DNA of 32,000 bases from an archaeon (GTDB lineage: Archaea; Asgardarchaeota; Thorarchaeia; Thorarchaeales; Thorarchaeaceae), in NCBI GenBank assembly GCA_024275415.1, contig JAJRZD010000064.1, positions 1-32,000 on the forward strand, written 5' to 3'. Below the pieces are notes generated by a model, which was given only the letters and a program-made list of their open reading frames with translations, was not told the DNA's origin and did not search any database. Shown piece by piece: positions 1,015-16,463 of the stretch (position 1 is the stretch's first letter; each line of letters opens with the position of its first letter). Position numbers and translations under genes: made by a program.

Positions 1015-1157
1015 CGAGTGGCATCCTCTGTGATGTTACGTATTATGACCTATCTAGCCCACAGCTCCCTCAAAAACATACCTCAGCCATTAGCAGGAAG
1101 CTCGTTCACTCTAGCAGTTTGATTCGAGAGTGTTGGATACAGGCTCAATAGTTTATA

Positions 1158-1296
1158 TGGTGCCGCAGGAGGGATTCGAGCCCTCGACTTCGAGATTTCC
1201 CATCTCGGGCCTTAGAGACATTGACCCCATAGTTTAGGTCGAAGATACGACCAAGATTATGAGTCTCGCGCCCTAACCAGGCTAGGCCACTGCGGC
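1158..1296 (-). tRNA. tRNA with CAT anticodon (probably elongator Met), 61-nt intron at 37/38 (1197..1257), encoded CCA
   Basis: Acceptor GCCGCAG/CTGCGGC+ACCA, anticodon arm CGAGA-CTCATA|A-TCTCG, T-arm GAGGG/CCCTC. Bulge-helix-bulge: CUCA pairs with intron UGGG and UCUUGG pairs with CCGAGA. Confidence 0.95.
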
Positions 1297-1407
1297 TTCG
1301 AACATGATCTCTTGTTGAGATTTGAATCTTCGATGGCTCACCACATCGACTGTCTATTAAAGTTACCTTTCTGGTTACTGTACAGTATATCATACACATC
1401 GTTATCG

Positions 1408-1421
1408 TATTACAAGTATTA
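1408..1421. repeat. TAWTAC-N2-GTAWTA palindrome, copy 1
   Basis: TATTAC-AA-GTATTA in the divergent tRNA/pan intergenic region. Confidence 0.7.
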
Positions 1422-1498
1422 GCATGTTATATAGCGTAGAAACCCCCAAGGATATGCTTAAGTAATTATCATCAAATTAGAACCAGAGGTGCCTCAGT

Positions 1499-2701
1499 AT
1501 GCCTAGTGGAACAGAGTCAAAAAAGGATGGCGAGCTCGAGGACGAAGTTCATTCACAGAGTTACACTCGTCATTTGGAGCGTAGACTAAGAGCGCTTGAA
1601 ACAGAACGTCAAATCCTGCAGGCTGAAAGGGGTAGACTTGAGAAAGAAACTCAAACGTTGCGAACTGAGCTGGAAAAGCTACGTCAAAGCCCGCTCATTA
1701 CTGGTACGATTGCAGAACTTTTGGATGACGGAAGGGCAATTGTCAAATCGTCGACAGGGCCAACATTTGTCACTCATGTTTCTTCAAGTATCCCGAAAGA
1801 AAAGATTCAACCAGGAGCTCGTGTTGCTCTTAACCAACGATCCTTCGCTGTGACTCAGGAACTACCACCTCCACGAGACCCTATGATTCGTGCGATGGAG
1901 ATTGAAGAGGCACCTGAGGTATCATACTCAGATATTGGAGGACTTCAGAATCAGCTCCGTGAAATCAGAGAAACGGTTGAACTCCCACTAATCAGGCCCG
2001 AGATTTTCAAAGAAGTAGGTATTGAGCCTCCCAAAGGTGTTCTTCTTACAGGCCCACCTGGAACAGGAAAAACATTGAGTGCTAGAGCGGTGGCTCACGA
2101 AACGAATGCCACATTCATTCGAGTGATAGGATCTGAACTTGTACAGAAGTTCATTGGCGAGGGTGCCCGTCTAGTTCGAGAAATCTTCATGATGGCAAAG
2201 GAGAAAGCTCCTGCAATCGTCTTTGTTGACGAATTGGATGCTGTGGGATCACATCGTCTGGATATCGCAACCTCTGGGGATCGAGAGGTACAGCGTACCC
2301 TTATGCAGCTCCTTAGCGAGCTTGATGGATTCGAATCTCGCGGTCAGGTTGCAATCATTGGAGCTACGAATAGACCAGATATTCTCGACCCAGCCCTTCT
2401 CAGGCCTGGGCGGTTTGACCGTATCATCGAGTTCCCTTTTCCGGATGCTTCGAGCCAGAGAGAGATATTCAAGATACATACGAGGGGCATGAATATAGAT
2501 AGTGGCGTGAATTTCGATGCGCTCGTTTCAGATAGCGTAAAATTGACTGGTGCTGATATCAAAGCCATCTGCACCGAGGCCGGAATGTTCGCTATTCGGG
2601 ATGGACAAACATGTGTGACTCAAGAACACTTCCGAAAAGCGATACAGAAAGTCAGAGAACGTGGTGGCGATAGCAACATTCCCAGCAACATCTATTGCTA
2701 G
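1499..2701 (+). CDS. pan: Proteasome-activating nucleotidase (AAA+)
   Basis: N-terminal coiled coil, OB fold, Walker A GPPGTGKT, Walker [31 protein letters not shown]-terminal HbYX (IYC). Confidence 0.96.
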
Positions 2702-2803
2702 AAGAATTAGTCACTTCCAATACTTGTAGATTAGGATAACATATCCTAATAGACATGAAATGTAGTGATTTGCAAAAACGCGAGTTCTTGATGGTGAAAC
2801 ATT

Positions 2804-3625
2804 ATGAGATATCGTGAGTTTCTTGGATTGGAAATGGCCGGCAGCAATTTTGAGGGCAATGCCCTACCTAATGGATATCATCTAATTGGACATGTTGCAC
2901 TCCTCAATGTCCCAGTTGACGATTTGGAGTATATCAAAATAATTGGCAAGCTAACACTAGAGTACGACTCACGGGTCAAATCAGTGGCAGTACGAACTGG
3001 CCCGACACAGGGGATTCGCAGGATTCCTTCATACCGTGTGATTGCAGGGACAACAAATACTGTCACTACTCATGTCGAAAATGGAGTCAAATTTCACTTA
3101 GACCCACTCCGAATCACATTTTCTGGTGGAAACCGTGAAGAGCGAATATCATTCCCGAAATGGGTGAAGGGTAACGAACATGTGGTAGATATGTTTTCAT
3201 GCGTCGGTCAATTTGCTCTGCATGTTGCCTGCAAGACCAATGCCAGAGTCACTGCGATTGAGATCAATCCTGATGCCTTCAGGTTTCTAAAAGAGAATAT
3301 CTTGATCAATGCAGTCCAAGATCGGGTGGAATCTATTCTCGGCGATTGCAGGAACGTCACCCCAAATTATCCTGCAAATAGGATAATAATGGGATACTTG
3401 CATGATACTATCAAGTATATTCCTACTGCTGTTGGAATGTTATCTAGCCAAGGAGGGTGGATTCACATGCATACTGTGACCACTAAAAGGGAGTTGGCCG
3501 GATTGTGTAATACAATTAATACTCTCTGTGGGGAACACGGTTTTGATGCAACGAGTAAATGGCGCGAGATCAAAAACTACTCCCCAGGGATGACGCATTA
3601 TGTATTCGACATAGAATTGCAGTAA
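2804..3625 (+). CDS. Trm5/Taw2 (Met-10+) family SAM-dependent tRNA methyltransferase
   Basis: IGHVALL N-terminus, FSGGNREER, VVDMFSCVGQFAL motif I, EINPDA, RIIMGY, IKNYSPG. Paralog identity (Trm5a/b/c vs Taw2) is unresolved. Confidence 0.85.
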   Translation: MRYREFLGLEMAGSNFEGNALPNGYHLIGHVALLNVPVDDLEYIKIIGKLTLEYDSRVKSVAVRTGPTQGIRRIPSYRVIAGTTNTVTTHVENGVKFHLDPLRITFSGGNREERISFPKWVKGNEHVVDMFSCVGQFALHVACKTNARVTAIEINPDAFRFLKENILINAVQDRVESILGDCRNVTPNYPANRIIMGYLHDTIKYIPTAVGMLSSQGGWIHMHTVTTKRELAGLCNTINTLCGEHGFDATSKWREIKNYSPGMTHYVFDIELQ

Positions 3626-3690
3626 ATCGCATACATCAAAGCATAAGCGTTTTATCTATTATGGAGTATTAAAGAGTGAGGCTGTATTAA

Positions 3691-4071
3691 ATGGGATTTC
3701 GAGGTATGTCACCCAAGCAAATTGCTCGAATGATGAAAAAGATGGGCATAGAACAAAGTGACTTGAAAGGTGTCAAGGAGGTCATAATCCGTTTTGAAGA
3801 CAAGGAGTGGCTAATTTCGAATCCACAGGTCGGAGTAATCAAACAGGCAGGGAGCGAATCATATCAGGTTTCAGGAAATAAGGTCGTGAGGAGTATTACA
3901 TCGGGATCACCATCTACAACCTCAGAAGAACAAGTTAGAGAAATTGAGATTCCAGTGGAAGATGCTGCGTTAGTTGCTAGTCAGACAGGCGTGACAATAG
4001 AACGAGCAACTGAGGCACTAAAGGAAACAGAAGGTGATCTTGCCGCAGCAATCCTTAAACTCAAGCAGTAG
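3691..4071 (+). CDS. nac: Archaeal nascent polypeptide-associated complex protein
   Basis: MSPKQIARMMKKMGI N-terminus, NAC domain, C-terminal UBA-like EDAALVASQTGV...ALKETEGDLAAAILKL. Confidence 0.95.
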   Translation: MGFRGMSPKQIARMMKKMGIEQSDLKGVKEVIIRFEDKEWLISNPQVGVIKQAGSESYQVSGNKVVRSITSGSPSTTSEEQVREIEIPVEDAALVASQTGVTIERATEALKETEGDLAAAILKLKQ

Positions 4072-4147
4072 AAACTCTATAACAGGTTGGAATCGGTTTT
4101 TTCAACAAGTATTTGTAATTGGTATAACGGATGAAAAGTGGCTGAGA

Positions 4148-4777
4148 TCAGTCCATATCCATTCTGTCACGAATCATTTTCAAACGGATGAAATCCTCAC
4201 GTTCTCTTTCTTCAAGTGCCAATCTTACAAACCGTGCTGTGGCATCGAGACGCGGGATGACAATGGTTTCTAGAGCTGAAACCCTCCGCTTTGTACGTTC
4301 AATCTCCAATGCCAACCTCTTTACTGTAGATTCGATTTCTGCAAGCTTGGTCAGGGATTTTAACGCCTCTCTAAACTTTATACTCATAGTATCCAATCGT
4401 GCGCTCGAGTCAGGAAGAGAGTAGGGAAGTTCAGGTACGTGTTGCTCGACAGTCATCACAGGGACACGGACGCCCATCATTGATCTTGTGGCAATGCTAA
4501 TATCTGTTCGCACCTTACTGGCGTATGCAAATTCAATGACTCGTGAGGGTCCCATAACCATCTTCGCCTGAGTGAGGCTTGAGAATGCTTCAGAAAGGGT
4601 ATCTTCTACAACATTTCTGGCCTCCTTGATTTCTGCGATAGCATTGAAGAATTCCATAATGAGCGAGTCACGTTTTTCCTTCAACAGATTGTGGCCGCGC
4701 TCAGCCAATCGCATTCTGTTCTTCAGGCGTAGTAGTTCCATTCTCGTGGTTTTTGTGCCTGCAAGTATTTTACTCAT
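4148..4777 (-). CDS. atpD: A/V-type ATP synthase subunit D
   Basis: TRMELLRLKNRMRLAERGHNLLKEKRDSL and EIERTKRRVSALETIVIPRL motifs. ATG at 4777 is preceded by GAGGT. Confidence 0.95.
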   Translation of the reverse strand: MSKILAGTKTTRMELLRLKNRMRLAERGHNLLKEKRDSLIMEFFNAIAEIKEARNVVEDTLSEAFSSLTQAKMVMGPSRVIEFAYASKVRTDISIATRSMMGVRVPVMTVEQHVPELPYSLPDSSARLDTMSIKFREALKSLTKLAEIESTVKRLALEIERTKRRVSALETIVIPRLDATARFVRLALEEREREDFIRLKMIRDRMDMD

Positions 4778-4863
4778 AAACCTCACATCGTGCTGCGAAC
4801 TGTTCAGATGATTTTGTAACGAAACCGGATGCCATCAGAATCCTAAAACTGTTGTGCTGGGCA

Positions 4864-5142
4864 TTATGTGAAACCAAATGCCAAAGCACTTATTATTAGT
4901 CCAATGGTGCATGTAATGATCCAATCCCGTAGATGCTTCTCAACGTTGTTGGGATTTTCGTTAATCAAGCCAGTTGTAACAAGTGTCATGGCTGAGATGA
5001 ACAGAAATGCAAAGGGAAGGGATGCTGTAGTGTTATCTAATGGAGCATCTGTAATCAAGATGATACCGGCAAGCATACCAAAGATGAGAAAGCTAAGTAT
5101 CATGAGAGAGGTCAAGATTCGTTGGATTCGGCTGACATCCAT
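4864..5142 (-). CDS. Small three-TM membrane protein, unknown function
   Basis: ATG at 5142 is preceded by AGGAG. Three hydrophobic segments. The upstream extension in the ORF track overlaps the next gene and is probably not real. Confidence 0.7.
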   Translation of the reverse strand: MDVSRIQRILTSLMILSFLIFGMLAGIILITDAPLDNTTASLPFAFLFISAMTLVTTGLINENPNNVEKHLRDWIITCTIGLIISALAFGFT

Positions 5143-5312
5143 ACTGAGTAGTCTCCTTAGTCGTCGTATATTAGTGCGTTGCCTTGACACATCACCTTCT
5201 TCAAAAAGGTTGTGTATTGAAAGAAGCAGGTTACACTTTTTTAACATAACCTTTATCAGTAGCGGAAATGGATGTTGTATTACAATAACTACATGTGATA
5301 CGAGGTATATGG

Positions 5313-6287
5313 ATGACAATCGCCATTCATGAGTCTGCATTGATACGGCATTTCAATACAAGAAAAGAAACATTGAGAGCTTGGGAAGAAAAGATAGGTG
5401 CACGATTCAGTCCGTTTAGGGGATTCAAAATGCCTGATAGTAGGCTTTATGTCGAACATCCTGATTTTCTAGATTCGATTGTGGATTTGATTATAACCAA
5501 CGAGCGTCATATCTTTTTGAGAGGGCCTGTAGGTAGTGGGAAAAGCACTTTGATGTTGTTGGCATTGCGAGATCTTCCTACACTTGCTGATAGGAGAGGA
5601 AACAAATTCATTACTGGGTATGTAGGAATGACTGGGCTTTATGAAAAGCAGATGAGTGCTGCTATTGCAGATTCGTTGCGCATCAAATATCGAAGATCTT
5701 GGGAGTCGAGCCAAATCATCGAAGCCGTAGCTCAGGAGAGTGTGCGTAGATACATTGAGGAGAAAAGCCGTACTGCTCTGTTCATTGAAGATGTGGCAGA
5801 CAACCAGGAAGCTGCATTTCATAAGCTACGTTATCTCGCAGACCTCCCTACTGAAGAGATGAAAGATGAATATGGGACAACACTTGATGAGCCTGTAGTG
5901 ACTCTAGTCATGTCGGGGACATCAATGTATTGGAATGCTATGTTGTCATTCCTTCCACAGATTGCCGATCGAACCGAACCTCTCGATGTTCCGCCGTTGA
6001 ATGACGATAAAGCAAAAGAATTCATCGGCAGGAGACTCGCTTATGCTAGGGGCGACATCGACAAGTTCGACCCAGATGACTTCAGTATTTATCCGTTTCA
6101 CGATGATGCCATCGTTGTTCTAAATCAAGCTTCAAAGGGAAATCCTCGCGACATTCGGATGTTAGCTCGCGGCTGCCAACAGGTAGCTGCTGAGAACTAT
6201 AAAAGAACTGGCAATCCTGATGTTGATGTAGAGATTGCCACATTGGTTGCAACTGCTTACGAGTATATCTTGAAGGAGGTCAGATGA
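5313..6287 (+). CDS. ExeA-like AAA+ ATPase
   Basis: Walker A GPVGSGKST, Walker B LFIEDV, sensor-like VMSGT, and GNPRDIRML helical bundle. ATG at 5313 follows GAGGT. Confidence 0.8.
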   Translation: MTIAIHESALIRHFNTRKETLRAWEEKIGARFSPFRGFKMPDSRLYVEHPDFLDSIVDLIITNERHIFLRGPVGSGKSTLMLLALRDLPTLADRRGNKFITGYVGMTGLYEKQMSAAIADSLRIKYRRSWESSQIIEAVAQESVRRYIEEKSRTALFIEDVADNQEAAFHKLRYLADLPTEEMKDEYGTTLDEPVVTLVMSGTSMYWNAMLSFLPQIADRTEPLDVPPLNDDKAKEFIGRRLAYARGDIDKFDPDDFSIYPFHDDAIVVLNQASKGNPRDIRMLARGCQQVAAENYKRTGNPDVDVEIATLVATAYEYILKEVR

Positions 6288-6586
6288 TGAGCCTACTAGG
6301 AAAATATAGAAAGGAAGAGGAACGTCGGGATGAAGAAAAACCTCCAGACAGCCCACGGAGTTCAAAGACAAGAAAGAAGACACAGGTACGCTCAACCCCA
6401 GTTGCGGTGCCCAACAAGGAGAGGAGAAGCCCTATAATGTCGTTCAGTGTGACATCGGAACTAAGATCTTGCCTTCAGGCGGTCAGAAATGAAAAGGCCA
6501 TCAATCTTAGTTTGTGGGTAGAAAAGAAACTACGTGAAGCATTGTCTGACGAGTTCCCTCTGATTGCTGATAGATATCTTGAATAA
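6284..6586 (+). CDS. Ribbon-helix-helix protein with disordered, charged N-terminal tail
   Basis: ATGA overlap with the ATPase stop. C-terminal IMSFSV (strand) - TSELRSCLQAVRNEK (helix) - AINLSLWVEKKLREAL (helix) fits the RHH pattern. Confidence 0.7.
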   Translation: MMSLLGKYRKEEERRDEEKPPDSPRSSKTRKKTQVRSTPVAVPNKERRSPIMSFSVTSELRSCLQAVRNEKAINLSLWVEKKLREALSDEFPLIADRYLE

Positions 6587-6597
6587 TACAAGTATTA
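6584..6597. repeat. TAWTAC-N2-GTAWTA palindrome, copy 2
   Basis: TAATAC-AA-GTATTA. Its ends are the TAA stops of the two convergent genes. Confidence 0.75.
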
Positions 6598-7995
6598 TGA
6601 GTGGGCATGTCTCTGCAAAAGGTAGGCATATTCAGTAATTTTCGACATACACAGGGATGCTAAGAAAGGATCATCATAACAGGGAATACGATTCATTTCA
6701 AGCAAATCCTTGCCAGGTTTGCCAACATCACCGGATAACCAAACACCAACTACTGGTTTATCGGACTCAACTGACCGGACACCTTCGAGCATACCAGCAG
6801 CATGTTCTGTTTGGGTCATACCCGCAAAAGTTGGGACTGCACAGATTACTAATAGCATGTCCACATTGGGATCGCTTAGAAGAAGTTCTGTGGTCACTCT
6901 ATACTCACGCCTACCTCCACTGGCAACAACATCGATTGGATTACCTATTGATGCCATGGGGGACAGTACTTGGCGAAGTTCACGTGTGGTTTCGGATTCT
7001 AATGATGGAATCGCTAGGCCCAAACTGGATGCCGCGTCGGTTGCAAGCACACCTGCACCACCTGTATTACTGATAATACCTATATTACGGCCTTTCGGGA
7101 GTGGCTGATAGTCAAAGAGCTTGCATATTTCAATAAGTGAATCAAGGGTCGGGGCAGAAACACAACCGGCTTGCTTAACCATGCCATCAAAGACTCTCGT
7201 TTCGCCAGCCAAAGACCCTGTATGGCTTTGAGTTGCTCTTCCTCCGGCTTCGCTTCTTCCACCTTTCAGGATAACTATGGGTTTTTCACGGGATGCCCTG
7301 CGTAGGGATTCAAAGAGCTTCTTTCCGTTCTCGACACCTTCAATGTATATAGCGATTACTTTCGTTCTGGGATCATTTCTGAAATATTCAAGTATGTCAA
7401 CAAAACCAATATCGGCAGCATTTCCAATACTTGCAAACTTGCTGATTCCGATTCGCTTGGCACGAGTCGTATAAATCATCATTCCTCCCAGGGCTCCACT
7501 TTGAGAAAGCAAGGCAATATTGCCACGTTCAGGCATCATGGTAAACGTCCCATTGAACAAGCGGCTATTCGAAATTCCAACACAGTTAGGTCCGACAATC
7601 CTGACGCCGGCTTTCTTCGCAGCAATCACAAGTTTTTGTTCAAGCTCGAAACCTTGAGGGCCAGTTTCACTGAAACCACCCGAAATCACTATAGCGTGAC
7701 TTGCACCTGCCTGTTTTACCTCAGCCATAAGGTCTGGACAATACTTTGCACTGACTGCTATTATCACAAGGTCGACGGGGTTTGGTATTTCAGACAGACT
7801 CCTGTATACTTTTGTTCCTAGTATGCGGTCACTTGATTTGCTAATCGGATATATTTCGATTTCCGATGAGAGGAGGTTCATAAGGATGGAGTTGCCTAGC
7901 TTTCTGTAATCAGTGGACGCACCAACCAATGCGACTCTTCTAGGGTTGAAGAAAGGATCCACATCGTTATATATATCGGGCTTGGAAGAACTCAT
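6595..7995 (-). CDS. acdA: Acetate/acyl-CoA ligase (ADP-forming), alpha subunit
   Basis: CoA-binding domain VALVGAS, RIVGPNCVG, SQSGALG, phospho-His motif SHTGSLAG, NTGGAGVLATD, NPIDV. Confidence 0.9.
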   Translation of the reverse strand: MSSSKPDIYNDVDPFFNPRRVALVGASTDYRKLGNSILMNLLSSEIEIYPISKSSDRILGTKVYRSLSEIPNPVDLVIIAVSAKYCPDLMAEVKQAGASHAIVISGGFSETGPQGFELEQKLVIAAKKAGVRIVGPNCVGISNSRLFNGTFTMMPERGNIALLSQSGALGGMMIYTTRAKRIGISKFASIGNAADIGFVDILEYFRNDPRTKVIAIYIEGVENGKKLFESLRRASREKPIVILKGGRSEAGGRATQSHTGSLAGETRVFDGMVKQAGCVSAPTLDSLIEICKLFDYQPLPKGRNIGIISNTGGAGVLATDAASSLGLAIPSLESETTRELRQVLSPMASIGNPIDVVASGGRREYRVTTELLLSDPNVDMLLVICAVPTFAGMTQTEHAAGMLEGVRSVESDKPVVGVWLSGDVGKPGKDLLEMNRIPCYDDPFLASLCMSKITEYAYLLQRHAHS

Positions 7996-8040
7996 GCATG
8001 CATCGCAATCGGGATATGATTTATGTGTGTCGTGGAAGTG

Positions 8041-8054
8041 TATTACAGGTAATA
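8041..8054. repeat. TAWTAC-N2-GTAWTA palindrome, copy 3
   Basis: TATTAC-AG-GTAATA, 3 bp past the stop of ORF 8058..9320 and upstream of acdA. Confidence 0.7.
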
Positions 8055-8057
8055 GGT

Positions 8058-9320
8058 CTAATAGGTCTTATTCTTCCACATTTTCCGATAGAATCTATAA
8101 AGTTCATTGACATAGAAACAGTTACTGCTGAGCAATTCAGAAACAGCTCTTTGTGTTTCGGGGCAGCGAGGTATCAAACGACTGATGACATCAAGGATCA
8201 GACTTCGAATAGACCGATTATTAGTATGGCAGAAGATGTCAAGTAGTGTATGTGCTGATGCTTCATCATAGAAATTACCTATCGCACGGATAGCATCGGA
8301 TTTGATTCTCATATCTGGCAGCTGGACAAGTTGACTGATAGATGAAATAGAATCCACCCACCGAATGATAATATGATCTCGTAATAACGATAGGAAACTC
8401 CTGTAGTCATGGCTACTACTAGTCTGCCGGTAGTTATCAGTATGATTTCTCAAAAGATGATTAAACACAGGACAGGCATGTCTGCTGCCAAGATTCCTAA
8501 GATTCTCCACATCACATGTGATCAGAGCGTCTAAGAGAAGCCTGTATTGGGAGTTCAGAGGTTTCTGATCGTAAGAGTTGTTTGTCTTCGTAATACCTCC
8601 TTGCAGGAGTCTACTTCGCACCTCATTTGATACTTGTAATACAGATATTACAACCTGAAATACTTCGGGCGAAACGACGAGTCCTTTGATACATAGTTCA
8701 ACGAGTGCTCGTCGTCCGAATTCTGAATGCCAGAGAGGGGTGATGTTGATTGAGTTTCCAATGGTATGACATATAATACTTGAAACTGAATCCTGCTGCA
8801 ATTCTTCAACTCTAAGACGTTGTTCTCTTTGGAGTCCAATTTCATAGGGAAGCAGAGAGGGTTCGAAGAAAAGGGTGTCGTTCGATTCGATATGTTCTTC
8901 CACGGCTCGACTGATTTCTTTTATGAAACAGGTTTTTGCGCGAACGAACGAGTTTGCTTCAGAAAGGTATTGGAGAAGATTGACAATACTTCGATTGACT
9001 GGTTCAAAGCCAGCACAATCAAAGATGCTAAATATGACTTCTCTAAATTTCAAAGGTTCCAATCGTCGGGTAGGATTGTCGCCGTCCAATGGGACGGAAT
9101 ACTTCATACTAGACGCACGGATGAGAAATGTAACCGCACTCTCCCAATCAATTTGATTTTCGATTTTCCAGAGGATATCCTGGACATCCCGTATACGCCG
9201 CTCCCCAATTGCATTACAGATCCTTTGAGCTATCTCGTTGTCTTGACTCTCTTGGATCCTCTTTCTACTAGCAGCCAATAATCGATTGATTGTACTGTCG
9301 TCACCCAAGATGATCCCCAC
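8058..9320 (-). CDS. Hypothetical helical protein with C-terminal HEAT-like repeats
   Basis: 420-aa ORF. C-terminal DMRIKSDAIRAIGNF...SIRSLILDVISRL resembles HEAT repeats. Confidence 0.7.
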   Translation of the reverse strand: MGIILGDDSTINRLLAASRKRIQESQDNEIAQRICNAIGERRIRDVQDILWKIENQIDWESAVTFLIRASSMKYSVPLDGDNPTRRLEPLKFREVIFSIFDCAGFEPVNRSIVNLLQYLSEANSFVRAKTCFIKEISRAVEEHIESNDTLFFEPSLLPYEIGLQREQRLRVEELQQDSVSSIICHTIGNSINITPLWHSEFGRRALVELCIKGLVVSPEVFQVVISVLQVSNEVRSRLLQGGITKTNNSYDQKPLNSQYRLLLDALITCDVENLRNLGSRHACPVFNHLLRNHTDNYRQTSSSHDYRSFLSLLRDHIIIRWVDSISSISQLVQLPDMRIKSDAIRAIGNFYDEASAHTLLDIFCHTNNRSIRSLILDVISRLIPRCPETQRAVSELLSSNCFYVNELYRFYRKMWKNKTY

Positions 9321-9593
9321 ATATGTGATAAGCGTAATAATATATCAAGAGGAAAAAAGTATTTCTTGTATTATATATATTGGTTGTAATACATGTATAG
9401 TATCTCCAACGTGTCATTATTACTACTAAAATAGGTGCAACTTAGCTTCGTTCTAAGATTAGAACTATGTATTATTGTTACACAAGTAAGTATGAATGTG
9501 TCGTGTCATACGATATGACTGCCATGAGATCGTTTCAATCAATAACGTAAATGAATCGTCGATTCTATCTCTATCTCCTCAAAAGCAATAAAC

Positions 9594-9896
9594 CTACAGA
9601 TTGATAGGCGATGGTTCGGATTGCGATAATTCGGTCTTGGAGCAGTCCCCCGATATGCGTATCACGGCACATTCGTACCGTTGGTAGCAGAATGTAAAAA
9701 TCTTGCCAATCGTATCAACAGGCATGTTAGTCATCCATGAAATCATCGAGCCTTCACGGTACGGATACATAGGAGTGCTTTGGGTAATGCACTTCCAGTA
9801 AATATGTAATTCAATAGTATTACTTGCAAGTGTTGTGATCAAAGTTGACTTGAAATTTGGACGATCTAAGATATTCCGACAACGAAAGAATATCAC
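9594..9896 (-). CDS. Possible small hypothetical protein
   Basis: 100-aa ORF with a GTG start, co-oriented with its neighbours. No recognisable motif. Confidence 0.3.
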   Translation of the reverse strand: MIFFRCRNILDRPNFKSTLITTLASNTIELHIYWKCITQSTPMYPYREGSMISWMTNMPVDTIGKIFTFCYQRYECAVIRISGDCSKTELSQSEPSPINL

Positions 9897-9915
9897 TCTG
9901 ATGTGTTAATATGTG

Positions 9916-9929
9916 TATTACAAGTATTA
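9916..9929. repeat. TAWTAC-N2-GTAWTA palindrome, copy 4
   Basis: TATTAC-AA-GTATTA. It includes the TAA stop (9927..9929) of the minus-strand gene. Confidence 0.75.
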
Positions 9930-10505
9930 TTCGTCCGGATTGTGCTGTCTTTTTCTGGCTAAATCGGATTTAAGGTTTAGAGGCGATGTTAATTCATGGA
10001 GTGCATCAAGAACCATCTGCTCAGCAGCCTTGTAGCTTTCTAGATCTTCCGCACTGAGATTTTCCCTACCGGACAAAACTTCTCGAATGCTTCGATATCC
10101 TCTAATCTTCGTTGACAACTCTTCAAACGGACGGAAAATTGAGTAATCAAATAGCTCAAGATATGAAAGAAGAAGCATAGTATAAAGACAACGGACAATA
10201 TTACGCCTCGATTGAGATAGGGTACGATTGAAAGCACCACGCGACACCCCCAAGGATCTACTAGAGGTTTTCGATCTCAGAGTTGCTTTACTTTCATATG
10301 AGATGTGACTTCCTAGCTGATCCTCAATTACAAGGTCGATAAGGAGTGTCTCTAACTGGACTTCAGTAAGATTGGATCTCTCAAGAAGAGCTCGTAGAAT
10401 AGGTTCTTGTAGGGCCCGCTTTGCATATTGCATAGCAGACTTCAAATCAGTTCGTGGAAGTTCATCATCTTTAGGATTCAAACTGACTAACCAACCTTTG
10501 TACAT
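9927..10505 (-). CDS. Conserved archaeal hypothetical protein with probable helix-turn-helix
   Basis: SNLTEVQLETLL...YESKATLR...GVSRGAFNRTLSQSRRNI resembles an HTH-containing archaeal family. Recognised from memory, not by search. Confidence 0.75.
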   Translation of the reverse strand: MYKGWLVSLNPKDDELPRTDLKSAMQYAKRALQEPILRALLERSNLTEVQLETLLIDLVIEDQLGSHISYESKATLRSKTSSRSLGVSRGAFNRTLSQSRRNIVRCLYTMLLLSYLELFDYSIFRPFEELSTKIRGYRSIREVLSGRENLSAEDLESYKAAEQMVLDALHELTSPLNLKSDLARKRQHNPDE

Positions 10506-10624
10506 GTGTGCGAAATCAGCGGTTTATCGCCTTCTAGGGCATTCTGGCAGTAGTTTCACAATGTGTCCTGTGCGGATACACTTTTGTATACACGGATAAC
10601 AGCGAGTTATGAGCTTTATGGATA

Positions 10625-10638
10625 TAATACACGTAATA
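10625..10638. repeat. TAWTAC-N2-GTAWTA palindrome, copy 5
   Basis: TAATAC-AC-GTAATA, 4 bp past the stop of ORF 10643..11062. Confidence 0.75.
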
Positions 10639-10642
10639 CAAA

Positions 10643-11062
10643 CTAAGAGGGAATTGTCCATTCATCCTCTATCGACAGCTTGACGAATCCTAGAATCAGA
10701 TTACCTCGAATCTCTTCAAATTTATATACGCCAAAAATGAATCGTTCTGTCCCTGATGTCCATTCCATCCGAGATTGATTCGCAAGATAATGAAAGAGAT
10801 TCCTACAGTATTTGCGAATAGTGGTAAATAGTGTCCTGAATTTCCGCCGTTGGGACGGGCGAATGCCCCAACGGTTCAATATAAACCGATTAGCCAGACT
10901 ATTGCTTGATATGAGGACGGTTCTCTTCTTCTGACTTGCCATGCTTGACTCAACGAGCATCTCCCGCAAGCAGGTAGGGATATTGCCCGCAACGGAGGGA
11001 GTAACGACCGGATCAATATAGAAATCTCTTTTCTGTTCCACTGTCGACCTCAAGGTAATCAA
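10643..11062 (-). CDS. Hypothetical basic protein
   Basis: 139-aa ORF with plausible composition. No family recognised. Confidence 0.65.
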   Translation of the reverse strand: MITLRSTVEQKRDFYIDPVVTPSVAGNIPTCLREMLVESSMASQKKRTVLISSNSLANRFILNRWGIRPSQRRKFRTLFTTIRKYCRNLFHYLANQSRMEWTSGTERFIFGVYKFEEIRGNLILGFVKLSIEDEWTIPS

Positions 11063-11199
11063 CCTCTAGTCCAAGATGTGGGAATATAAAGCCCTACATA
11101 AATCGTAATACAAGTAGTACTGGTATTAGGTCTGTATGATACCATGTCAGTGAATTAATAACTCGTGTCATTGCAGTGCTAAGATGAGGTCTTCCACAA

Positions 11200-13569
11200 T
11201 TGATTCGGAGTGCAAAGATCCATATCAACGGAATTGTACAGGGGGTTGGATTTAGACCTTTTGTATATAGAGTTGCTAGAACTCTTTCATTGAAAGGAAC
11301 CGTGCTGAACCTAGGCGATGCTGGAGTGCGGATAATTGTAGAAGGTGAAAAAAGAACAATCGAAACGTTTTTGGAAATTCTAAGGAATCGTCCTCCCTCT
11401 ATTTCCCGAATTGATTCAATGGTTGTGGAATGGAGTGAATATAGTGGCCGGTACTCTGAATTTCTTATTGAAAAATCACAAGTTGTACGAAGTGATAGTG
11501 CTGAACCTGTGATACCTCCAGATATCGCAATCTGTGATGATTGTATAAAGGACTTGTTTGAAAACGGATCTAGATGGAAAGGATATCCTTTCACATCCTG
11601 TGCAGCATGTGGCCCTAGGTTTTCAACAATTCTAAAACTGCCTTACGATAGGCCCAACACCACAATGAACGATTTCCCTCTCTGTAGTACATGTAATACA
11701 GGTTATACAGACCCTCTAGACCGTAGATACCATGCACAGACTACCGCATGCGGATTATGTGGCCCCAAGTACAGCTTTAAAGACAATAACGGAAACACAG
11801 TCACATCTGAAAGACCAATACGCGAAACTGCAAAACTACTTCGGGATGGAAAGATAGTCGCAATCCAAGGCATTTCAGGAACACATCTCGTGGTCATTAC
11901 TTCACAGTCCGATCCGCTATTCGAACTGAGAAAAAGGAAAAATCGTCATCAACGACCACTTGCTATAATGATGCGGTCAACCGAGGCACTCGTGGATTGC
12001 TTCGATGTGACAAGCGAAGAATACAGTCTTCTTACTTCGTGGCGTAGGCCAATCGTTCTCGTGAAAAAAAGGACCAGTCCGAATCGAAAGGGAGATGTAT
12101 TACCTGTAATACATGATACGGTGCTTGAAATGCTCGCACCAGGTCTCGACACAGTGGGAGTGATGTTGCCATACGCGCCAGTACATCACTTGCTCTTTCA
12201 GAATCTTGACGAACTGGCGTTGGTGATGACAAGTGCAAATCCGACAGGTATTCCAATGTATGTGGAGCCAAGTGAGATACAGAGTTCCCTAGTTGGGATT
12301 GCCGATTACTACCTAATACATAATAGGAAAATCCAACAACGTGCGGATGATTCGGTAGTAAAATTCATTGGTGATAATTCAGCTCTCTTCATTAGAAGGG
12401 CTAGAGGATATACTCCTGAGCCTATTCCTATTAGGAGAAATGGCAACAAGTGCACCGTCCTTGGGTTGGGGCCAGAAGAAAAGGTGATGGGAGCTATCCT
12501 CAAGTCAGGAAACATATACCCTACTCAATACATCGGAAATGTAACAAACGTCGAAAACATCAGATTCCTAGAAAATGCATATCATCATCTTTCACAACTA
12601 ATTGGTGCAGAGCAAATAGATGCAATTGCTTGTGATCTACATCCTGAGTTCTTCACTAGTACTCATGCAGAATCGATCTCAAGTGAATGGGAGATCCCAT
12701 TATTCAGGGTGCAACACCACCACGCTCATATGTCTTCGCTCATCGCCGACCACAAATTACCCATTGATACAAGTATTGTTTGTATTACAGCTGATGGGTA
12801 TGGTTATGGGCTAGGTGGAATCGGGTGGGGTGGAGAAGTCCTTATGGGAAGCTGTGCAAACTTTGTGAACAAAGCTGGACTACACACATATATACATCCT
12901 GGCGGGGATCTGTCTGCCGAATTTGGATCAAGACCTCTAATTGGCATCCTTAAAGATCGTATTGAAGAAGACAGGTTACTATCTCTATTAGACGGACTTC
13001 CGATTTCTAAGAACGCAAGATTAGATGAACATACCCTTAACATACTACTTCGATCGATTGACAAAAAAGTCAATACGATAATGACTTCAAGTGCAGGAAG
13101 ATATCTTGATGCTGTCGCAGCGATTCTTGGAATTTGTGATAGGAATACTTACGATGGCGAAAGTCCGATGAAACTTGAGGCTGTTGCAAGGCGCACAGAG
13201 ATCAAAATTGAGCCATGTTTCATACAGACAAAAGGAAGACATGTAATGGATCTATCTGATTCTATCCAAAAGATAATAGATCTAAAAGAACGAAGAGTTT
13301 CAACAGAAGAAATAGCATATGCAGCCCAGTGGGGTCTCGGCAATGGACTCGCAACCTTGGCAGCTGAAATAGCAGAAGAAAGTGATGTCTCATACATCGG
13401 TTTCTCGGGCGGGGTTGCTTTAAACCGCATAATTACCAAAGCGGTAGTATCAACAATAGAAGCATATTCCAAAACACCTCTAATTCATAGTCGGGTGCCT
13501 CCAGGAGACGGAGGTGTTTCTGTCGGTCAGGTAATGGTTAGCGCTGCGCTACTCGAACGAAAGCAGTAA
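11200..13569 (+). CDS. hypF: [NiFe]-hydrogenase maturation carbamoyltransferase HypF
   Basis: Acylphosphatase domain GIVQGVGFRPFVY, zinc fingers (CDDC/CAAC, CSTC/CGLC), TSAN, QHHHAH, PPGDGGVSVGQ. TTG start after GAGGT. Confidence 0.97.
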   Translation: MIRSAKIHINGIVQGVGFRPFVYRVARTLSLKGTVLNLGDAGVRIIVEGEKRTIETFLEILRNRPPSISRIDSMVVEWSEYSGRYSEFLIEKSQVVRSDSAEPVIPPDIAICDDCIKDLFENGSRWKGYPFTSCAACGPRFSTILKLPYDRPNTTMNDFPLCSTCNTGYTDPLDRRYHAQTTACGLCGPKYSFKDNNGNTVTSERPIRETAKLLRDGKIVAIQGISGTHLVVITSQSDPLFELRKRKNRHQRPLAIMMRSTEALVDCFDVTSEEYSLLTSWRRPIVLVKKRTSPNRKGDVLPVIHDTVLEMLAPGLDTVGVMLPYAPVHHLLFQNLDELALVMTSANPTGIPMYVEPSEIQSSLVGIADYYLIHNRKIQQRADDSVVKFIGDNSALFIRRARGYTPEPIPIRRNGNKCTVLGLGPEEKVMGAILKSGNIYPTQYIGNVTNVENIRFLENAYHHLSQLIGAEQIDAIACDLHPEFFTSTHAESISSEWEIPLFRVQHHHAHMSSLIADHKLPIDTSIVCITADGYGYGLGGIGWGGEVLMGSCANFVNKAGLHTYIHPGGDLSAEFGSRPLIGILKDRIEEDRLLSLLDGLPISKNARLDEHTLNILLRSIDKKVNTIMTSSAGRYLDAVAAILGICDRNTYDGESPMKLEAVARRTEIKIEPCFIQTKGRHVMDLSDSIQKIIDLKERRVSTEEIAYAAQWGLGNGLATLAAEIAEESDVSYIGFSGGVALNRIITKAVVSTIEAYSKTPLIHSRVPPGDGGVSVGQVMVSAALLERKQ
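12095..12114. repeat. TAWTAC-N2-GTAWTA palindrome, copy 6 (extended, intragenic)
   Basis: ATGTATTAC-CT-GTAATACAT inside hypF. Confidence 0.65.
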
Positions 13570-13590
13570 TGTAATACAGGTATTACATTA
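13567..13590. repeat. TAWTAC-N2-GTAWTA palindrome, copy 7 (extended to 24 bp)
   Basis: TAATGTAATAC-AG-GTATTACATTA. Its two ends are the stop codons of convergent hypF and iorB. Confidence 0.8.
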
Positions 13591-14217
13591 TAGTGAATCA
13601 GAAATCGCTTGATAGCCGAGTTCAAATGCTTTCGTATTCACGTCTACAAACTTGCTAGGAAATGTAGTCTGCACAACATGTAATGCGGTTTCTTTCTTAA
13701 TAGGAACAATCCCACTTGCTAGTATTGCACCCAGCATTACAATATTCATAGATAGGCTATTTCCAGCGTTATTGGCCAGTTCTATTGCGTTGAATTCAAT
13801 GATTTTCGCTGTGTGCATAGTCAAGGCATCATGGATTTCCTCTTTCGAGGGATACTCTGCCTTACCCATAGAAACTACAACTGGATATTGAACATGGGAA
13901 TTCATGATGACTAAACCTCCTTTCGATATCAGGTGGATCTCCCTCAGTGTTTCAACAGGCTCAAAACCTACTACCAAGTGAGCAGTGCCAGGATCAATTA
14001 TAGGACCCTTTGCATTCTCGCCAATACGCACAGTACATACAACATGACCACCACGTTGAGCCATCCCATGGATTTCTCCAACACGCACATTATGGGAATC
14101 TTCCAATGCACTCTTTGCCAGTATCTCTGCGAGTGTAAGAACTCCTTGGCCTCCAACACCGGTAATAGCTATGTTAATCACAGTTGTATTACGTGTATTA
14201 CTAGTCATGAGATTCAT
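13588..14217 (-). CDS. iorB: Indolepyruvate:ferredoxin oxidoreductase beta subunit
   Basis: ITGVGGQGVL, EIHGMAQRGGHV, NIVMLGA motifs. ATG at 14217 overlaps the iorA stop (ATGA). Confidence 0.93.
   Translation of the reverse strand: MNLMTSNTRNTTVINIAITGVGGQGVLTLAEILAKSALEDSHNVRVGEIHGMAQRGGHVVCTVRIGENAKGPIIDPGTAHLVVGFEPVETLREIHLISKGGLVIMNSHVQYPVVVSMGKAEYPSKEEIHDALTMHTAKIIEFNAIELANNAGNSLSMNIVMLGAILASGIVPIKKETALHVVQTTFPSKFVDVNTKAFELGYQAISDSL
14187..14200. repeat. TAWTAC-N2-GTAWTA palindrome, copy 8 (intragenic)
   Basis: TATTAC-GT-GTATTA in the N-terminal coding region of iorB. Confidence 0.6.
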
Positions 14218-16103
14218 TCCTCCTGTTTGATAGCACCTTGTGGACAAACTGCAACACAAGTTCCACAATAATTACACAGTGGCTCATCAATCACTGCTTT
14301 ATCTGTCACACTATCAAGATACATCGCTGGGCAGGACAACCGATTCAGGCATCGTTTGCAAGCTGTACACATATCAGAGTCGACATAGAACCTAGGGGGA
14401 TACTCTCCAGTCTTCCTCATCTCCGCAGCAGTAAGAAGTGCACATGGTGCTTTTGAAACTAATACAGCTGGTTCATGGTTTTCACGAACCCATTTGACCA
14501 TCTCCCGTACTTCACGTACTAATCCGGCAAGCGAGTCGAAAGGATTGATCGTTTTCACATACTTCACACCTAATCCCTTAGCTACATCCTCTACATCAAG
14601 GGGTTCCACCTGCTCTTGCATCCCCGTGATTCCTGTCCCGGGATGGGGCTGATGTCCAGTCATAGCGGTCGTACGGTTATCCAAAACTACAAGGCTGACG
14701 GGATGTTTGTTGTATACGGCGTTGACAAGCCCTGGAAGAACTGAGGCAAAAAAAGTGCTATCACCGACCGATGCCACAATATCCTGTCCCGTGACTTGAG
14801 CAATCCCACATGCAGTTGAGATCGAAGAGCCCATGTCAAAGAGAATATCTGCTGTTTCCAAAGGCGGTGCGATGCTAAGTGTGTAACATCCGATATCCGA
14901 GGGATAGATGGCTTTCCCGCGTGTAGCAGTTCTAATTGCAAAATAACTTGCCCTGTGGGGACAGCCCGCACAGAGTAATGGAGGTCGTGGCGGGAGGTCA
15001 GCCATATCCTTCATGCGCGAGTCGATTTCATCCCAATTGATACATGTATTACAGTCAGCAATCTTACACAGGGCCTCAATTACTATACGCGGACTGTATT
15101 CCATCGTCCTCGAGAAGTAACCCTGCTCTTTGCCGAGGATGTCGACCTCAACTCGGTGAAGTTGGGCGAGGCGGCGAGCGTGGGTTTCGAGATACGGTTC
15201 GAGCTCTTCCACAACAACCACTCGTTCATGCATCCTGAGAAAATCAGTTAGCTTCTGTTCAGGTAGCGGATGAGTGATACCAAGCTTGAGGATTTCAGCA
15301 TTCATCCCAAGATGGTCAAGAGCTTCGACGACATAAGTATAAGCGACACCACTCGTGATAATCCCTAAATCGCCTGTGCCCTCTATAAAGTTTAAGTGGC
15401 TAGTTTCAGAGATTTCTCGTGCTTTCGCTATTTGGCCGAGAAGCCAAGGATGTCGTAGTCGTGCTACTGAAGGTACTGGGACAAATCGATAGGGTTCTTT
15501 TTCAAATTCTACTTGTGCAGGGCGTTCACGGATCTCGTGGAACCGAACGGGTGCCCTAGTATGGTTCACCCGAGTCGTTGTGCGAAATAATACCGGAAGT
15601 TCTACTTTCTCTGAAAACTCATAAGCCTCTAACAACATTGATTTCGCCTCTGCTGGATCGGATGGTTCCATAAGTGGCATATTACCCATTAGAGCATAAT
15701 ATCGACTATCATTCTCGTTCTGGGAACTCCACATGCTTGGGTCGTCAGCCACCACAATCACCATCCCCCCACGCACACCCACATATGCTAGAGAGAAAAA
15801 AGGATCTGCTGCCACATTCAAACCAGGGCCCTTGCATACCATCATTGATCGGACTCCTGCAACCGCAGCCGCTCCAGCTACCTCTAATGCAACTTTCTCA
15901 TTTGTGCTGAACTCGAAATAGAAATTCGGAATGTGTGGAGCCATGAAAGTAAGATTATTCCCAATCTCACTGCTTGGAGTTCCTGGATAAAGTGCAACTA
16001 ATCGTACACCAGCCTCAAGAACACCTCTCGCTATCGCTTCGTTCGCTAACAGAAGTAAAGTCTTACCAGGTGCATCTTCAAGTAGTTCTTTTGGTTTTGT
16101 CAC
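14214..16103 (-). CDS. iorA: Indolepyruvate:ferredoxin oxidoreductase alpha subunit
   Basis: YPGTPSSEI, NEKVALE, PPLLCAGCPHR, TPP motif GDSTFF...LDNRTTAMTGHQ, and a C-terminal two-cluster ferredoxin domain (CTACKRC, CNYCGTCVAVCP). GTG start after AGGAGG. Confidence 0.96.
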   Translation of the reverse strand: MTKPKELLEDAPGKTLLLLANEAIARGVLEAGVRLVALYPGTPSSEIGNNLTFMAPHIPNFYFEFSTNEKVALEVAGAAAVAGVRSMMVCKGPGLNVAADPFFSLAYVGVRGGMVIVVADDPSMWSSQNENDSRYYALMGNMPLMEPSDPAEAKSMLLEAYEFSEKVELPVLFRTTTRVNHTRAPVRFHEIRERPAQVEFEKEPYRFVPVPSVARLRHPWLLGQIAKAREISETSHLNFIEGTGDLGIITSGVAYTYVVEALDHLGMNAEILKLGITHPLPEQKLTDFLRMHERVVVVEELEPYLETHARRLAQLHRVEVDILGKEQGYFSRTMEYSPRIVIEALCKIADCNTCINWDEIDSRMKDMADLPPRPPLLCAGCPHRASYFAIRTATRGKAIYPSDIGCYTLSIAPPLETADILFDMGSSISTACGIAQVTGQDIVASVGDSTFFASVLPGLVNAVYNKHPVSLVVLDNRTTAMTGHQPHPGTGITGMQEQVEPLDVEDVAKGLGVKYVKTINPFDSLAGLVREVREMVKWVRENHEPAVLVSKAPCALLTAAEMRKTGEYPPRFYVDSDMCTACKRCLNRLSCPAMYLDSVTDKAVIDEPLCNYCGTCVAVCPQGAIKQEE

Positions 16104-16207
16104 AGAAGATCCTCCTTAACACCATAGAATTGGCTGTGCAGTCGAACCAAGTTTCGTCTATCAGTCTTATGGTAGTACAGAGCCTGTATTACATGTATCA
16201 CGCACTA

Positions 16208-16225
16208 TTAGAACACATGTTCCAA
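16208..16225. promoter_or_regulatory. 18-bp palindrome WTAGAACACRTGTTCYAA, copy 1
   Basis: TTAGAACACATGTTCCAA. Confidence 0.7.
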
Positions 16226-16300
16226 CAAACAATCATACAAAACAAGACGTAGCGTTAAACAAGATCAACACAACAAAAACAGAAAATGTGGAAAGACAAG

Positions 16301-16322
16301 ACCCCTCTATTTCCTATGGAAC
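16301..16322 (-). promoter_or_regulatory. Origin recognition box (ORB)-like element
   Basis: The minus strand reads GTTCCATAGGAAATAGAGGGGT, a TTCC-N3-GGAA dyad plus G-string as in archaeal ORBs. Confidence 0.75.
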
Positions 16323-16433
16323 TGTATGAATATTGCTTGTAGCAATGACAACTGTATGTATGTATGAAAAATGGAGATAAATGCAATTTGTCAATCTTAT
16401 ATATATAATTTTCTTTTTCTGTTTTTTTTTGAT
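16323..16433. other. AT-rich core (candidate duplex-unwinding element)
   Basis: 16397..16430 is 31/34 A+T. It lies between ORB-like boxes and includes a (TGTA)3 run. Confidence 0.6.
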
Positions 16434-16463
16434 ACCCCATTATTTCCATTGGAAGCAAGGGGG
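16434..16463. promoter_or_regulatory. ORB-like element readable in both orientations
   Basis: Plus strand TTTCCATTGGAAGCAAGGGGG (16443..16463). Minus strand CTTCCAATGGAAATAATGGGGT (16455..16434). Confidence 0.75.

Follow-up and report, generated by a model that had tools for sequence, protein, structure and literature searches.

Genome-unique array of paired GTAWTAC boxes beside a candidate replication origin of Thorarchaeota, a putative centromere-like element linked to an Orc1/Cdc6-like ATPase

A 32,000-bp stretch of DNA from a genome of the family Thorarchaeaceae (assembly GCA_024275415.1, contig JAJRZD010000064.1, positions 1 to 32,000; hereafter the window) was analysed for an array of short palindromic boxes built from the 7-bp unit GTAWTAC, together with an operon inside the array that encodes an ATPase and a small ribbon-helix-helix (RHH)-like protein. 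Several described systems resemble this locus in part. In partition systems of type Ib (ParF-ParG-parH of TP228 and delta-omega-parS of pSM19035), an ATPase gene precedes the gene of a small RHH protein whose N-terminal tail is flexible. The type Ib centromere consists of arrays of 7–8-bp units, the RHH protein autoregulates the operon, and the motor is a deviant Walker ParA. In bacterial ParABS, parS palindromes are clustered within a few kb of the origin and often lie inside genes. SegB is an archaeal RHH centromere binder, and its segS sites are short phased repeats of [AGNGTNN]3 near the origin, accompanied by partial sites (bioRxiv 10.1101/2025.04.15.649018 = PMC12139799; PMC11381335). 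The RHH repressor aCcr1 of Sulfolobales and its viral homologues bind A(T/G)GTA(A/T)TACN and also AGTATTA, sequences related to the ccr-2 box TGTATTAT; two box copies are needed for full binding, and the protein is linked to the cell cycle (PMC9976878, PMC9976892). It is a tail-less repressor of 58 amino acids (aa) with approximately 300 promoter sites genome-wide, in the stretch separating the TATA box from the start codon (PMC9976878). For Asgard archaea, a current review lists ParA and ParB homologues only, and full-text literature searches found no description of the array or the operon reported here.

The source genome consisted of 3,525,578 bp in 127 contigs and was 92.9% complete. The window represented the first 32 kb of a 95.9-kb contig, and since position 1 is the contig end, the array could run on past it. 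A sequence-only reading of the window had described eight exact copies of the 14-bp palindrome TAWTAC-N2-GTAWTA (1408, 6584, 8041, 9916, 10625, 12098, 13572, and 14187), some copies with one mismatch, and no exact copy at 16.5–32 kb. These observations were confirmed and proved stronger than claimed: dinucleotide shuffles gave an expectation of 0.02 exact copies in the window, and 13 more copies with one mismatch were located between 3508 and 16187. The resulting 21 copies, all between 1408 and 16200, compared with 0.22 expected at up to one mismatch, and no copy with 0–1 mismatch was present in the window beyond 16.2 kb. The whole-genome scan that the same reading had proposed revealed a very large enrichment and a distribution that was not uniform, with eight of eight exact copies in the window at 1408–14200. 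Both results favour that reading. The 32 one-mismatch copies of the genome comprised 13 at the locus and 19 scattered singly elsewhere at the background rate.

The 14-mer copies overlapped at 9-bp offsets, which identifies GTAWTAC, a 7-bp palindrome that recurs two or three times with 2 bp separating the repeats, as the real unit. The full box was accordingly written as GTAWTAC-N2-GTAWTAC, with two to three units at a 9-bp period. With 0–1 mismatch, this 16-mer occurred 14 times in positions 1–16300 and not once in the remaining 3.51 Mb; with two mismatches, 9 copies were found in the same interval and 15 elsewhere in the genome. Single units numbered 23 in the first 16.3 kb, compared to 1.1 expected from the genome rate. 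Altogether, 18 distinct array loci were distributed over approximately 15 kb, and several contained three units at 9-bp offsets. The spacing of loci in the core at 6.6–16.2 kb (6591–16194) was 640 ± 242 bp (coefficient of variation 0.38), an evenness reached by only 5 of 100,000 random placements. The even spacing was also kept across genera, and it may reflect a structural constraint, for example from looping, wrapping or chromatin phasing.

Several copies are adjacent to stop codons, and the sequence-only reading had offered a termination signal as one possible role. Its account of the placement was roughly right: three copies (6584, 9916, and 13572) overlapped or abutted stop codons, two (8041 and 10625) lay 4–5 bp from one, two were intragenic (12098 within hypF and 14187 within the first codons of iorB), and the copy at 1408 was intergenic. 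A terminator, a repetitive extragenic palindromic (REP)-like element or a mobile-element remnant is nevertheless extremely improbable and can be regarded as effectively excluded. No other gene end of the genome carried a box, about half of the sites were inside coding sequence, no consistent T-run followed the boxes, and the 16-bp boxes had no flanking repeat body and were found within conserved genes at orthologous positions. The W bases at the centre of paired units (TT 6, AT 6, AA 4, TA 4) showed no hairpin co-variation; they varied independently, which indicates two protein-sized palindromes and no conserved hairpin. An Rfam scan of the window found only a tRNA, and the boxes therefore belong to no known RNA family.

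Comparison with Thorarchaeota (hereafter Thor) relatives revealed that exact motif copies were gathered in one cluster in family members from other genera (10/10 within 22.5 kb in G014, 8/8 in G016, 6/6 in G017, 10/11 in G013, 5/5 in G006, and 5/6 in G005). The cluster was always in one syntenic block, PAN...AAA330-RHH-ACS-HEAT-o192-o139-HypF-IorBA-[spacer]-AlaDH, in which AAA330 and RHH denote the ATPase and the RHH-like protein, and o192 and o139 two uncharacterised proteins. In the complete Thor chromosome CP070658.1 (G160), 8 of 9 copies of the 16-mer with up to one mismatch lay within 11.7 kb of the same block; the strict 14-mer gave only one unrelated match there and missed the cluster, which the 16-mer with one mismatch recovered. 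Across ten genomes from different genera, approximately 20 sites recurred at constant offsets from the iorA start (+90, −1066, −1917, −2540, −3330, −4008, −4415, −5000, −5490, −6200, −6550, −7300, −7880, −8870, −9350, −10900, −12400, and beyond). The confinement of the motif to one side of the candidate origin, as previously described, held for the source genome, but relatives carried a few sites on the other side.

The boxes were retained even within coding sequence. Following the suggestion of the sequence-only reading to examine synonymous positions in hypF and iorB, orthologues of these and other genes of the block were compared, and the answer was clear: third-codon-position entropy was 0.34–1.10 in sites against 1.31–1.46 in the rest of each gene. 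The lowest value belonged to a three-unit array inside the acs-alpha coding sequence (7064..7088; 0.34 in the site versus 1.41 outside), which was absent from the outgroup genome G025. In IorA, IorB, and Trm5, the amino acids varied at the sites and the DNA box was kept. The array inside Trm5/Tyw2 (3507..3522; two units, one mismatch) was retained as TGT AAT ACA ATT AAT AC in 6 of 9 orthologues despite varying protein sequence, and at that inside iorA (15037..15052; two mismatches) the amino-acid entropy exceeded that of the remainder of the gene. Inside the HEAT-repeat gene, the array at 8627..8651 read GTA WTA nnn GTA WTA C in all nine orthologues, whose protein identity was approximately 31%. 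Inside hypF, the array at 12773..12788 (two mismatches; offset −3330 from the iorA start) read ATT nnn TGT ATT ACA in 8 of 9 orthologues and ATC ACC in G018. The HypF zinc finger was PLCxTCNTGYT in the Thor family versus PFCDECYKEYT, PLCTYCNQEYK, and PLCDYCMEEYT in outgroups, and the ACS segment was KGRNIGIISNTGG versus KGNKVAIITNAGG. As judged from these sequence comparisons, host proteins were shown to have been remodelled to carry the boxes. Genome-unique clustering, conservation of site positions and selection on the DNA itself are firmly established.

The operon within the array begins with AAA330 (324 aa; 5313..6287, + strand), an Orc1/Cdc6-like AAA+ ATPase with weak Pfam matches to AAA_22 and ORC. 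It carries a classical P-loop and has neither a winged-helix domain nor Cdc6_C. The structural model had a predicted local distance difference test (pLDDT) score of 87, and its best fold matches were archaeal Orc1/Cdc6 and the AAA+ modules of eukaryotic ORC/Cdc6, followed by TnsC, with TM-scores of about 0.5. Against TIGR02928, the Orc1 family model, the protein scored 11.9 bits, below the cut-off of 181. AAA330 was 80–92% identical across Thor genera and more conserved than the neighbouring genes. Homologues were labelled Candidatus Thorarchaeota, and homologues with 25–43% identity were present in metagenome-assembled genomes (MAGs) labelled Heimdallarchaeota and Jordarchaeia and in other families. 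The profile family was narrow, with 10 representatives at E < 1e-30 inside the ExeA/AAA_22 superfamily. Two distant members of the ATPase family also preceded small tailed proteins with an RHH-like C-terminus.

The second gene of the operon encodes a tailed small RHH-like protein of 100 aa (6284..6586, + strand), the start of which overlaps the ATPase stop (ATGA). It carries LLGKYRK as an invariant N-terminal peptide, and its model shows a disordered basic tail (residues 18–55), an extended segment and a confident C-terminal helix-loop-helix. A structure search returned a list rich in RHH proteins (SegB, omega, PutA, CopA, ParD, and SvtR) with Z of at most 3.7; SegB (7duv) matched the RHH-like domain with Z 3.0 and a root-mean-square deviation of 2.1 Å over 45 residues, and the omega repressor with Z 2.9. 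No PDB sequence match was obtained. Foldseek with the RHH model gave nothing significant (Arc repressor at E ~9), and tblastn of the domain against phage and archaeal-virus records gave nothing relevant. No Pfam or NCBIfam family was found for the RHH-like protein, o192 or o139, and PDB profile searches were empty. The RHH fold is a prediction that is consistent with these results. A complex prediction of AAA330 and the RHH-like protein, with alignments as input, scored 0.00 and counts neither way.

The likeness of this locus to SegAB consists of an RHH-type binder (predicted for the Thor protein) encoded downstream of an ATPase, and of short phased repeats. However, SegA is a ParA/Walker-type protein, whereas the Thor ATPase is an Orc1/Cdc6-like AAA+ protein with AAA_22 matches, and segS comprises one full site by the operon plus weak scattered sites, compared to approximately 20 strong sites in one Thor block. 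With type Ib systems, the locus shares an ATPase followed by a tailed small protein of predicted RHH fold, and arrays of short units. It differs in having approximately 20 arrays dispersed over 15 kb of chromosome instead of one to three compact ones, and an initiator-like classical P-loop AAA+ protein instead of a deviant Walker-A motor. As in ParABS, genome-unique palindromic sites are clustered beside a (predicted) origin, but the Thor box is unrelated to the 16-bp parS, and its reader is probably an RHH protein and not a helix-turn-helix (HTH) CTPase clamp. Orc1/Cdc6 itself is similar in the ATPase fold and in the location beside origin recognition boxes (ORB); AAA330 differs by the missing winged helix and approximately 14% sequence identity, and the GTAWTAC boxes are unlike ORB and extend far from the origin.

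Outside the Thor family, the same locus carried different motifs. In G025, the sole sampled genome of the sister family (33% G+C), the GTAWTAC box was missing at the orthologous positions, and the genome had TAWTAA-N2-TTAWTA (unit TTAWTAA) instead; the syntenic 14 kb contained 12 of the 14 genome copies of this pattern, and a reversed control pattern gave 16 copies. In G060, a complete 3.58-Mb genome of a distant Asgard family, GATATC(A) was strongly enriched around the ATPase homologue. These boxes occurred as pairs and triplets with a period of approximately 13 bp, and 9 of 10 chromosome copies of GATATC-N6-8-GATATC lay in 11.4 kb around DP1-Orc1-o209-AAA330-RHH-o192-HypF. The gene order there was PolD-DP1, Orc1/Cdc6, o209 (a winged HTH protein), AAA330, a 155-aa protein whose C-terminus shows an RHH-like pattern, o192, and HypF, which is a textbook archaeal origin neighbourhood, and the boxes filled the DP1-Orc1 and Orc1-o209 spacers. 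GATATC boxes co-located with the ATPase contig in four congeners of G060. In four genomes of family f7, paired GTTAAC boxes were found within approximately 1.5–2.5 kb of the ATPase, but these were only 1–2 of 3–6 genome copies, and either the cluster is small or its motif is poorly defined. No clear enriched word was detected around the locus of G026 (family f3). The array is linked across Asgard lineages, as a firm observation, to the operon of an Orc1-like AAA+ protein and a tailed RHH-like protein; these two genes and a conserved HTH-type gene were always part of the locus.

Family f12 had neither detectable AAA330 nor ParB. In its genome G065, TCAATGAA (15 versus 2.3 expected) and TGATATCA (6 versus 0.6) were enriched in 20 kb around o192 (L043 1–20000) and adjoined ORB-like TTCCAGTGGAA boxes, which suggests yet another variant of the system. 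In another genome of this family, an 84%-identical Thor-type ATPase was located at the end of a short contig (G117:C249:2-955) and is likely bin contamination.

In the complete genome G036 (family f13), the gene order was DP1, Orc1/Cdc6, a 2.4-kb spacer, ParA, ParB, two small ORFs and o192; canonical ParAB therefore sits where AAA330-RHH sits in G060. A census of ParB_N (PF02195) across 151 sampled genomes detected the domain in 3 of 3 genomes of f13 and 12 of 13 of f5, compared to 3 of 42 in the families with AAA330 (f1, 3/26, on other contigs; f2, 0/1; f3, 0/4; f7, 0/5; f19, 0/6). In the source genome, given its completeness of 92.9%, ParB_N remained unmatched at E ≤ 1e-5. ParB and the ATPase were largely complementary across families, although few independent lineages are involved, and a distribution of this kind would be expected from the non-orthologous displacement of a partition module. 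The HTH-type protein o192 (192 aa; 9927..10505, − strand), which occurs Asgard-wide and is more widespread than AAA330, stayed at the origin locus with either AAA330-RHH or ParA-ParB as neighbour (also at L042:11819-12391). Both systems may have this protein in common.

The candidate origin (16301..16463) consists of inverted ORB boxes that carry G-strings and surround an AT-rich core; it is the context of the array, not a member of it. The ORB boxes sit in the 735-bp iorA-AlaDH spacer, and the array begins approximately 100 bp from them. Only five ORB plus G-string matches were found genome-wide, three of them at 16435, 16445, and 20534, and the cumulative GC skew of the contig had its maximum at approximately 14 kb. 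The source genome encodes two true Orc1/Cdc6 proteins (C52:654-1769 and C43:41277-42374, the latter a six-frame match with one in-frame TAG), one gene 25 kb further along the window's contig and one on another contig. In CP070658.1, the paralogues were located at 783 kb and 1,832 kb, one of them 24 kb from the array locus. Only the lower-scoring Orc1 paralogue was linked (about 25 kb) to the array, and Thor chromosomes may have two origins of which only one bears it. A second palindrome, TAGAACAC(A/G)TGTTC(C/T)AA, occurred at 16208, 16507, and 16829, bracketing the ORB/AT-rich core at a spacing of approximately 300 bp; the same GAACA-N2-TGTTC dyad ranked first near the ATPase of a distant family (G030).

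Such a neighbourhood raises the question of replication control, in which the ATPase lacking a winged helix, delivered by the RHH-like protein to oriC-flanking boxes, would act as an auxiliary initiator or regulator, possibly in origin licensing, sequestration, a helicase-loading zone or the timing of firing. The ATPase fold, closest to archaeal Orc1/Cdc6 and eukaryotic ORC/Cdc6 subunits, the short distance of the array from the ORB boxes, the box-filled spacers around Orc1 in G060 and the Orc1 paralogue at about 25 kb in both the source genome and CP070658.1 are in favour of it. However, the array reaches 15 kb into housekeeping genes, beyond any known origin; the equivalent position in another family is held by ParA-ParB, which is no initiator, with a complementary distribution; and DNA-coating ATPases of the TnsC type fit the fold almost equally well. 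We therefore consider a replication-control role unlikely.

The placement of the array loci relative to genes bears on a possible operator function, and some loci stand close to start codons. The exact two-unit array at 1407..1422 lies in the intergenic stretch that separates a tRNA gene from the PAN start, and equivalents occur upstream of PAN in G006, G020, and G005. The tRNA gene itself (1161-1296, − strand; 136 nt; Rfam 51 bits) contains an intron, and since it lies there, an 84-aa ORF over the same positions is spurious. A single perfect GTATTAC unit (5277..5283) is located 30 bp upstream of the start of the ATPase-RHH operon; in G014, G016, G017, G020, G008, and G013, this spacer or the edge of the adjoining o158 ORF contained one or two full arrays. 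The exact array at 8040..8055 lies 45 bp upstream of the acs-alpha start and 4 bp from the HEAT-protein stop, with its position kept in relatives, and that at 9359..9374 is 39 bp upstream of the HEAT-protein start. An exact array (10624..10639) occupies the interval from the stop of o139 to the start of o192, at a distance of 119 bp upstream of the latter, and a three-unit array (11105..11129) the divergent o139/hypF promoter spacer. The array at 16186..16201, which borders the candidate origin and lies 83 bp upstream of iorA, had equivalents in G014, G017, G006, G020, and G008.

Other loci lie at gene ends or within genes. The exact array at 6583..6598, where the RHH gene and acs-alpha end convergently, provides both stop codons and was kept at this position in all relatives. 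A three-unit array (9906..9930) overlaps the o192 stop codon, with its position kept in relatives, and a perfect 16-mer (13571..13586) lies between the convergent hypF and iorB stops. In addition to the intragenic arrays described above, hypF contains a three-unit array in its zinc-finger coding sequence (11684..11708) and a perfect 16-mer (12097..12112), the first codons of iorB contain another perfect 16-mer (14186..14201), and the HEAT-repeat gene contains a weak array with two mismatches (8764..8779), the least certain member. In total, approximately 7 of the 18 loci were 30–120 bp upstream of start codons, the operon's own promoter included.

These loci could be explained as a local regulon, that is, as operators through which a cell-cycle repressor of the aCcr1/CdrS-like RHH type, local or stand-alone, would co-regulate the genes of the block, with the intragenic copies as roadblocks or by-products. 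The GTAWTAC core is the same as in the aCcr1-box, AGTATTA, and the ccr-2 box, and the genome encodes a stand-alone RHH_1 protein of 75 aa (CopG/aCcr1/CdrS-like; C20:70007-70231, − strand, = L046:8007-8231) with 42% identity to SIRV2 gp21. Unlike the hundreds of aCcr1 promoter sites across a genome (PMC9976878), the Thor paired boxes were confined to one 15-kb block on the origin side, in phased pairs and triplets; half were intragenic or between convergent stops, with their position kept at a cost to the protein sequence. The local protein also differs from aCcr1 in its 50-aa tail and its ATPase partner. The housekeeping genes of the block encode PGK, PAN, Trm5/Tyw2, NAC, AtpD, ADP-forming acetyl-CoA synthetase (ACS), HypF, IorBA, AlaDH, and saccharopine dehydrogenase, with AAA330, the RHH-like protein, o192 and the 139-aa o139 as uncharacterised genes among them; PAN, NAC, AtpD, ACS, HypF, and IOR share no common pathway. 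Moreover, the ParAB lineage, too, has members of the stand-alone RHH family. A regulon as the full explanation is quite improbable, but a dual operator role is likely for a subset, given the loci upstream of starts and the core shared with the aCcr1 operator (PMC9976878). The earlier suggestion that the placement fits chromosome-organising sites better than promoter operators holds only in part.

Several proteins were considered as readers of the boxes. The o192 protein was down-weighted: its HTH segment was nearly constant across the phylum and identical in two families of the Thor order with different motifs, and an HTH that does not change where the motif changes argues against o192 as the specificity determinant. 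The o139 protein was rejected, as it was detected only in the Thor family and G025 nevertheless has an array. Co-variation of the RHH strand with the motif was weakened as an argument, since the residues that probably face the DNA were I-S-S and I-T-S in the two families. Stand-alone RHH_1 proteins are possible alternative readers. That an RHH dimer is able to read a GTAWTAC unit is supported independently, by the published experiments on aCcr1-box binding.

The array would most likely serve as a landing pad for a local DNA-binding protein and the ORC-like ATPase. Each 7-bp palindrome would suit one symmetric dimer, and two or three units at the 9-bp period would allow cooperative dimer binding. 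The most likely reader would be the tailed RHH-like protein encoded within the array (6284-6586), whose LLGKYRK peptide and basic tail may recruit or stimulate the co-transcribed AAA330 (5313-6287). Approximately 18–20 such complexes, about 600 bp apart over 15 kb, would mark and compact origin-adjacent DNA for handling after replication, and the promoter-near subset, including that of the operon itself, would probably double as operators, as in the ParG, omega, and ParB systems. The binding protein, its partnership with the ATPase and the role in segregation are what we infer from the locus.

Chromosome-organising sites of the parS/SegB-site type, as proposed by the sequence-only reading, are the best supported of the readings, on account of the single cluster by the ORB boxes, the positional and synonymous conservation, the lineage-specific motif variants and ParAB in the equivalent position; its overall interpretation was supported in part. 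That the boxes form an origin-flanking, centromere-like protein-binding array, for a partition complex or the organisation of the origin domain, appears about evenly balanced between right and wrong. More tentatively, and on balance doubtfully, several Asgard lineages (among them Thor, a group labelled Heimdall and MAGs labelled Jord) may possess an undescribed class of partition machine that segregates or organises the origin region, in which an Orc1/Cdc6-like AAA+ protein without a winged helix is the motor or scaffold, a tailed RHH protein the adaptor, and approximately 20 dispersed arrays beside oriC the centromere, as a non-orthologous replacement of ParABS.

A number of observations weigh against a partition-like array read by the local protein. 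AAA330 falls in no known partition family, and neither the Thor nor the G060 ATPase was matched on PLSDB plasmids by tblastn. The RHH fold is weakly backed, with no Pfam or NCBIfam family and the low structural Z noted above; in hhalign, the local protein matched SIRV2 gp21, of the aCcr1 clade, with a probability of only 5.7%, a value that does not indicate homology, though the strand alignment was in register. Between the two Thor families, there may be little difference in the strand residues that face the DNA, which leaves the co-variation argument weak. Approximately 7 of 18 loci are at operator-like positions, and each Asgard genome checked has 3–4 stand-alone aCcr1/CdrS-like RHH paralogues, the ParAB lineage included. 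CP070658.1 carries its second, better-scoring Orc1 approximately 1 Mb from the locus; with a second Orc1 gene elsewhere, the origin is plausible but only predicted, perhaps one of two. In addition, the relatives compared are kin, and counts across genomes overstate their independence.

These findings bear on how archaea, and Asgard archaea especially, segregate their chromosomes. In this sample, the families in which ParB was mostly not found, comprising most Thor genomes and several other Asgard families, are those with the ATPase-RHH operon inside a genome-unique array. The array also shows clearly how a DNA signal can override the constraint of protein coding, since the zinc finger of HypF, the glycine-rich loop of ACS and the N-terminus of IorB have been rewritten to accommodate it. 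The system can be tested in vitro from the sequence, using the 16-bp box, the 100-aa protein and the 324-aa ATPase. If the proposed role is true, it would tie an ORC-like ATPase to chromosome handling beyond initiation.

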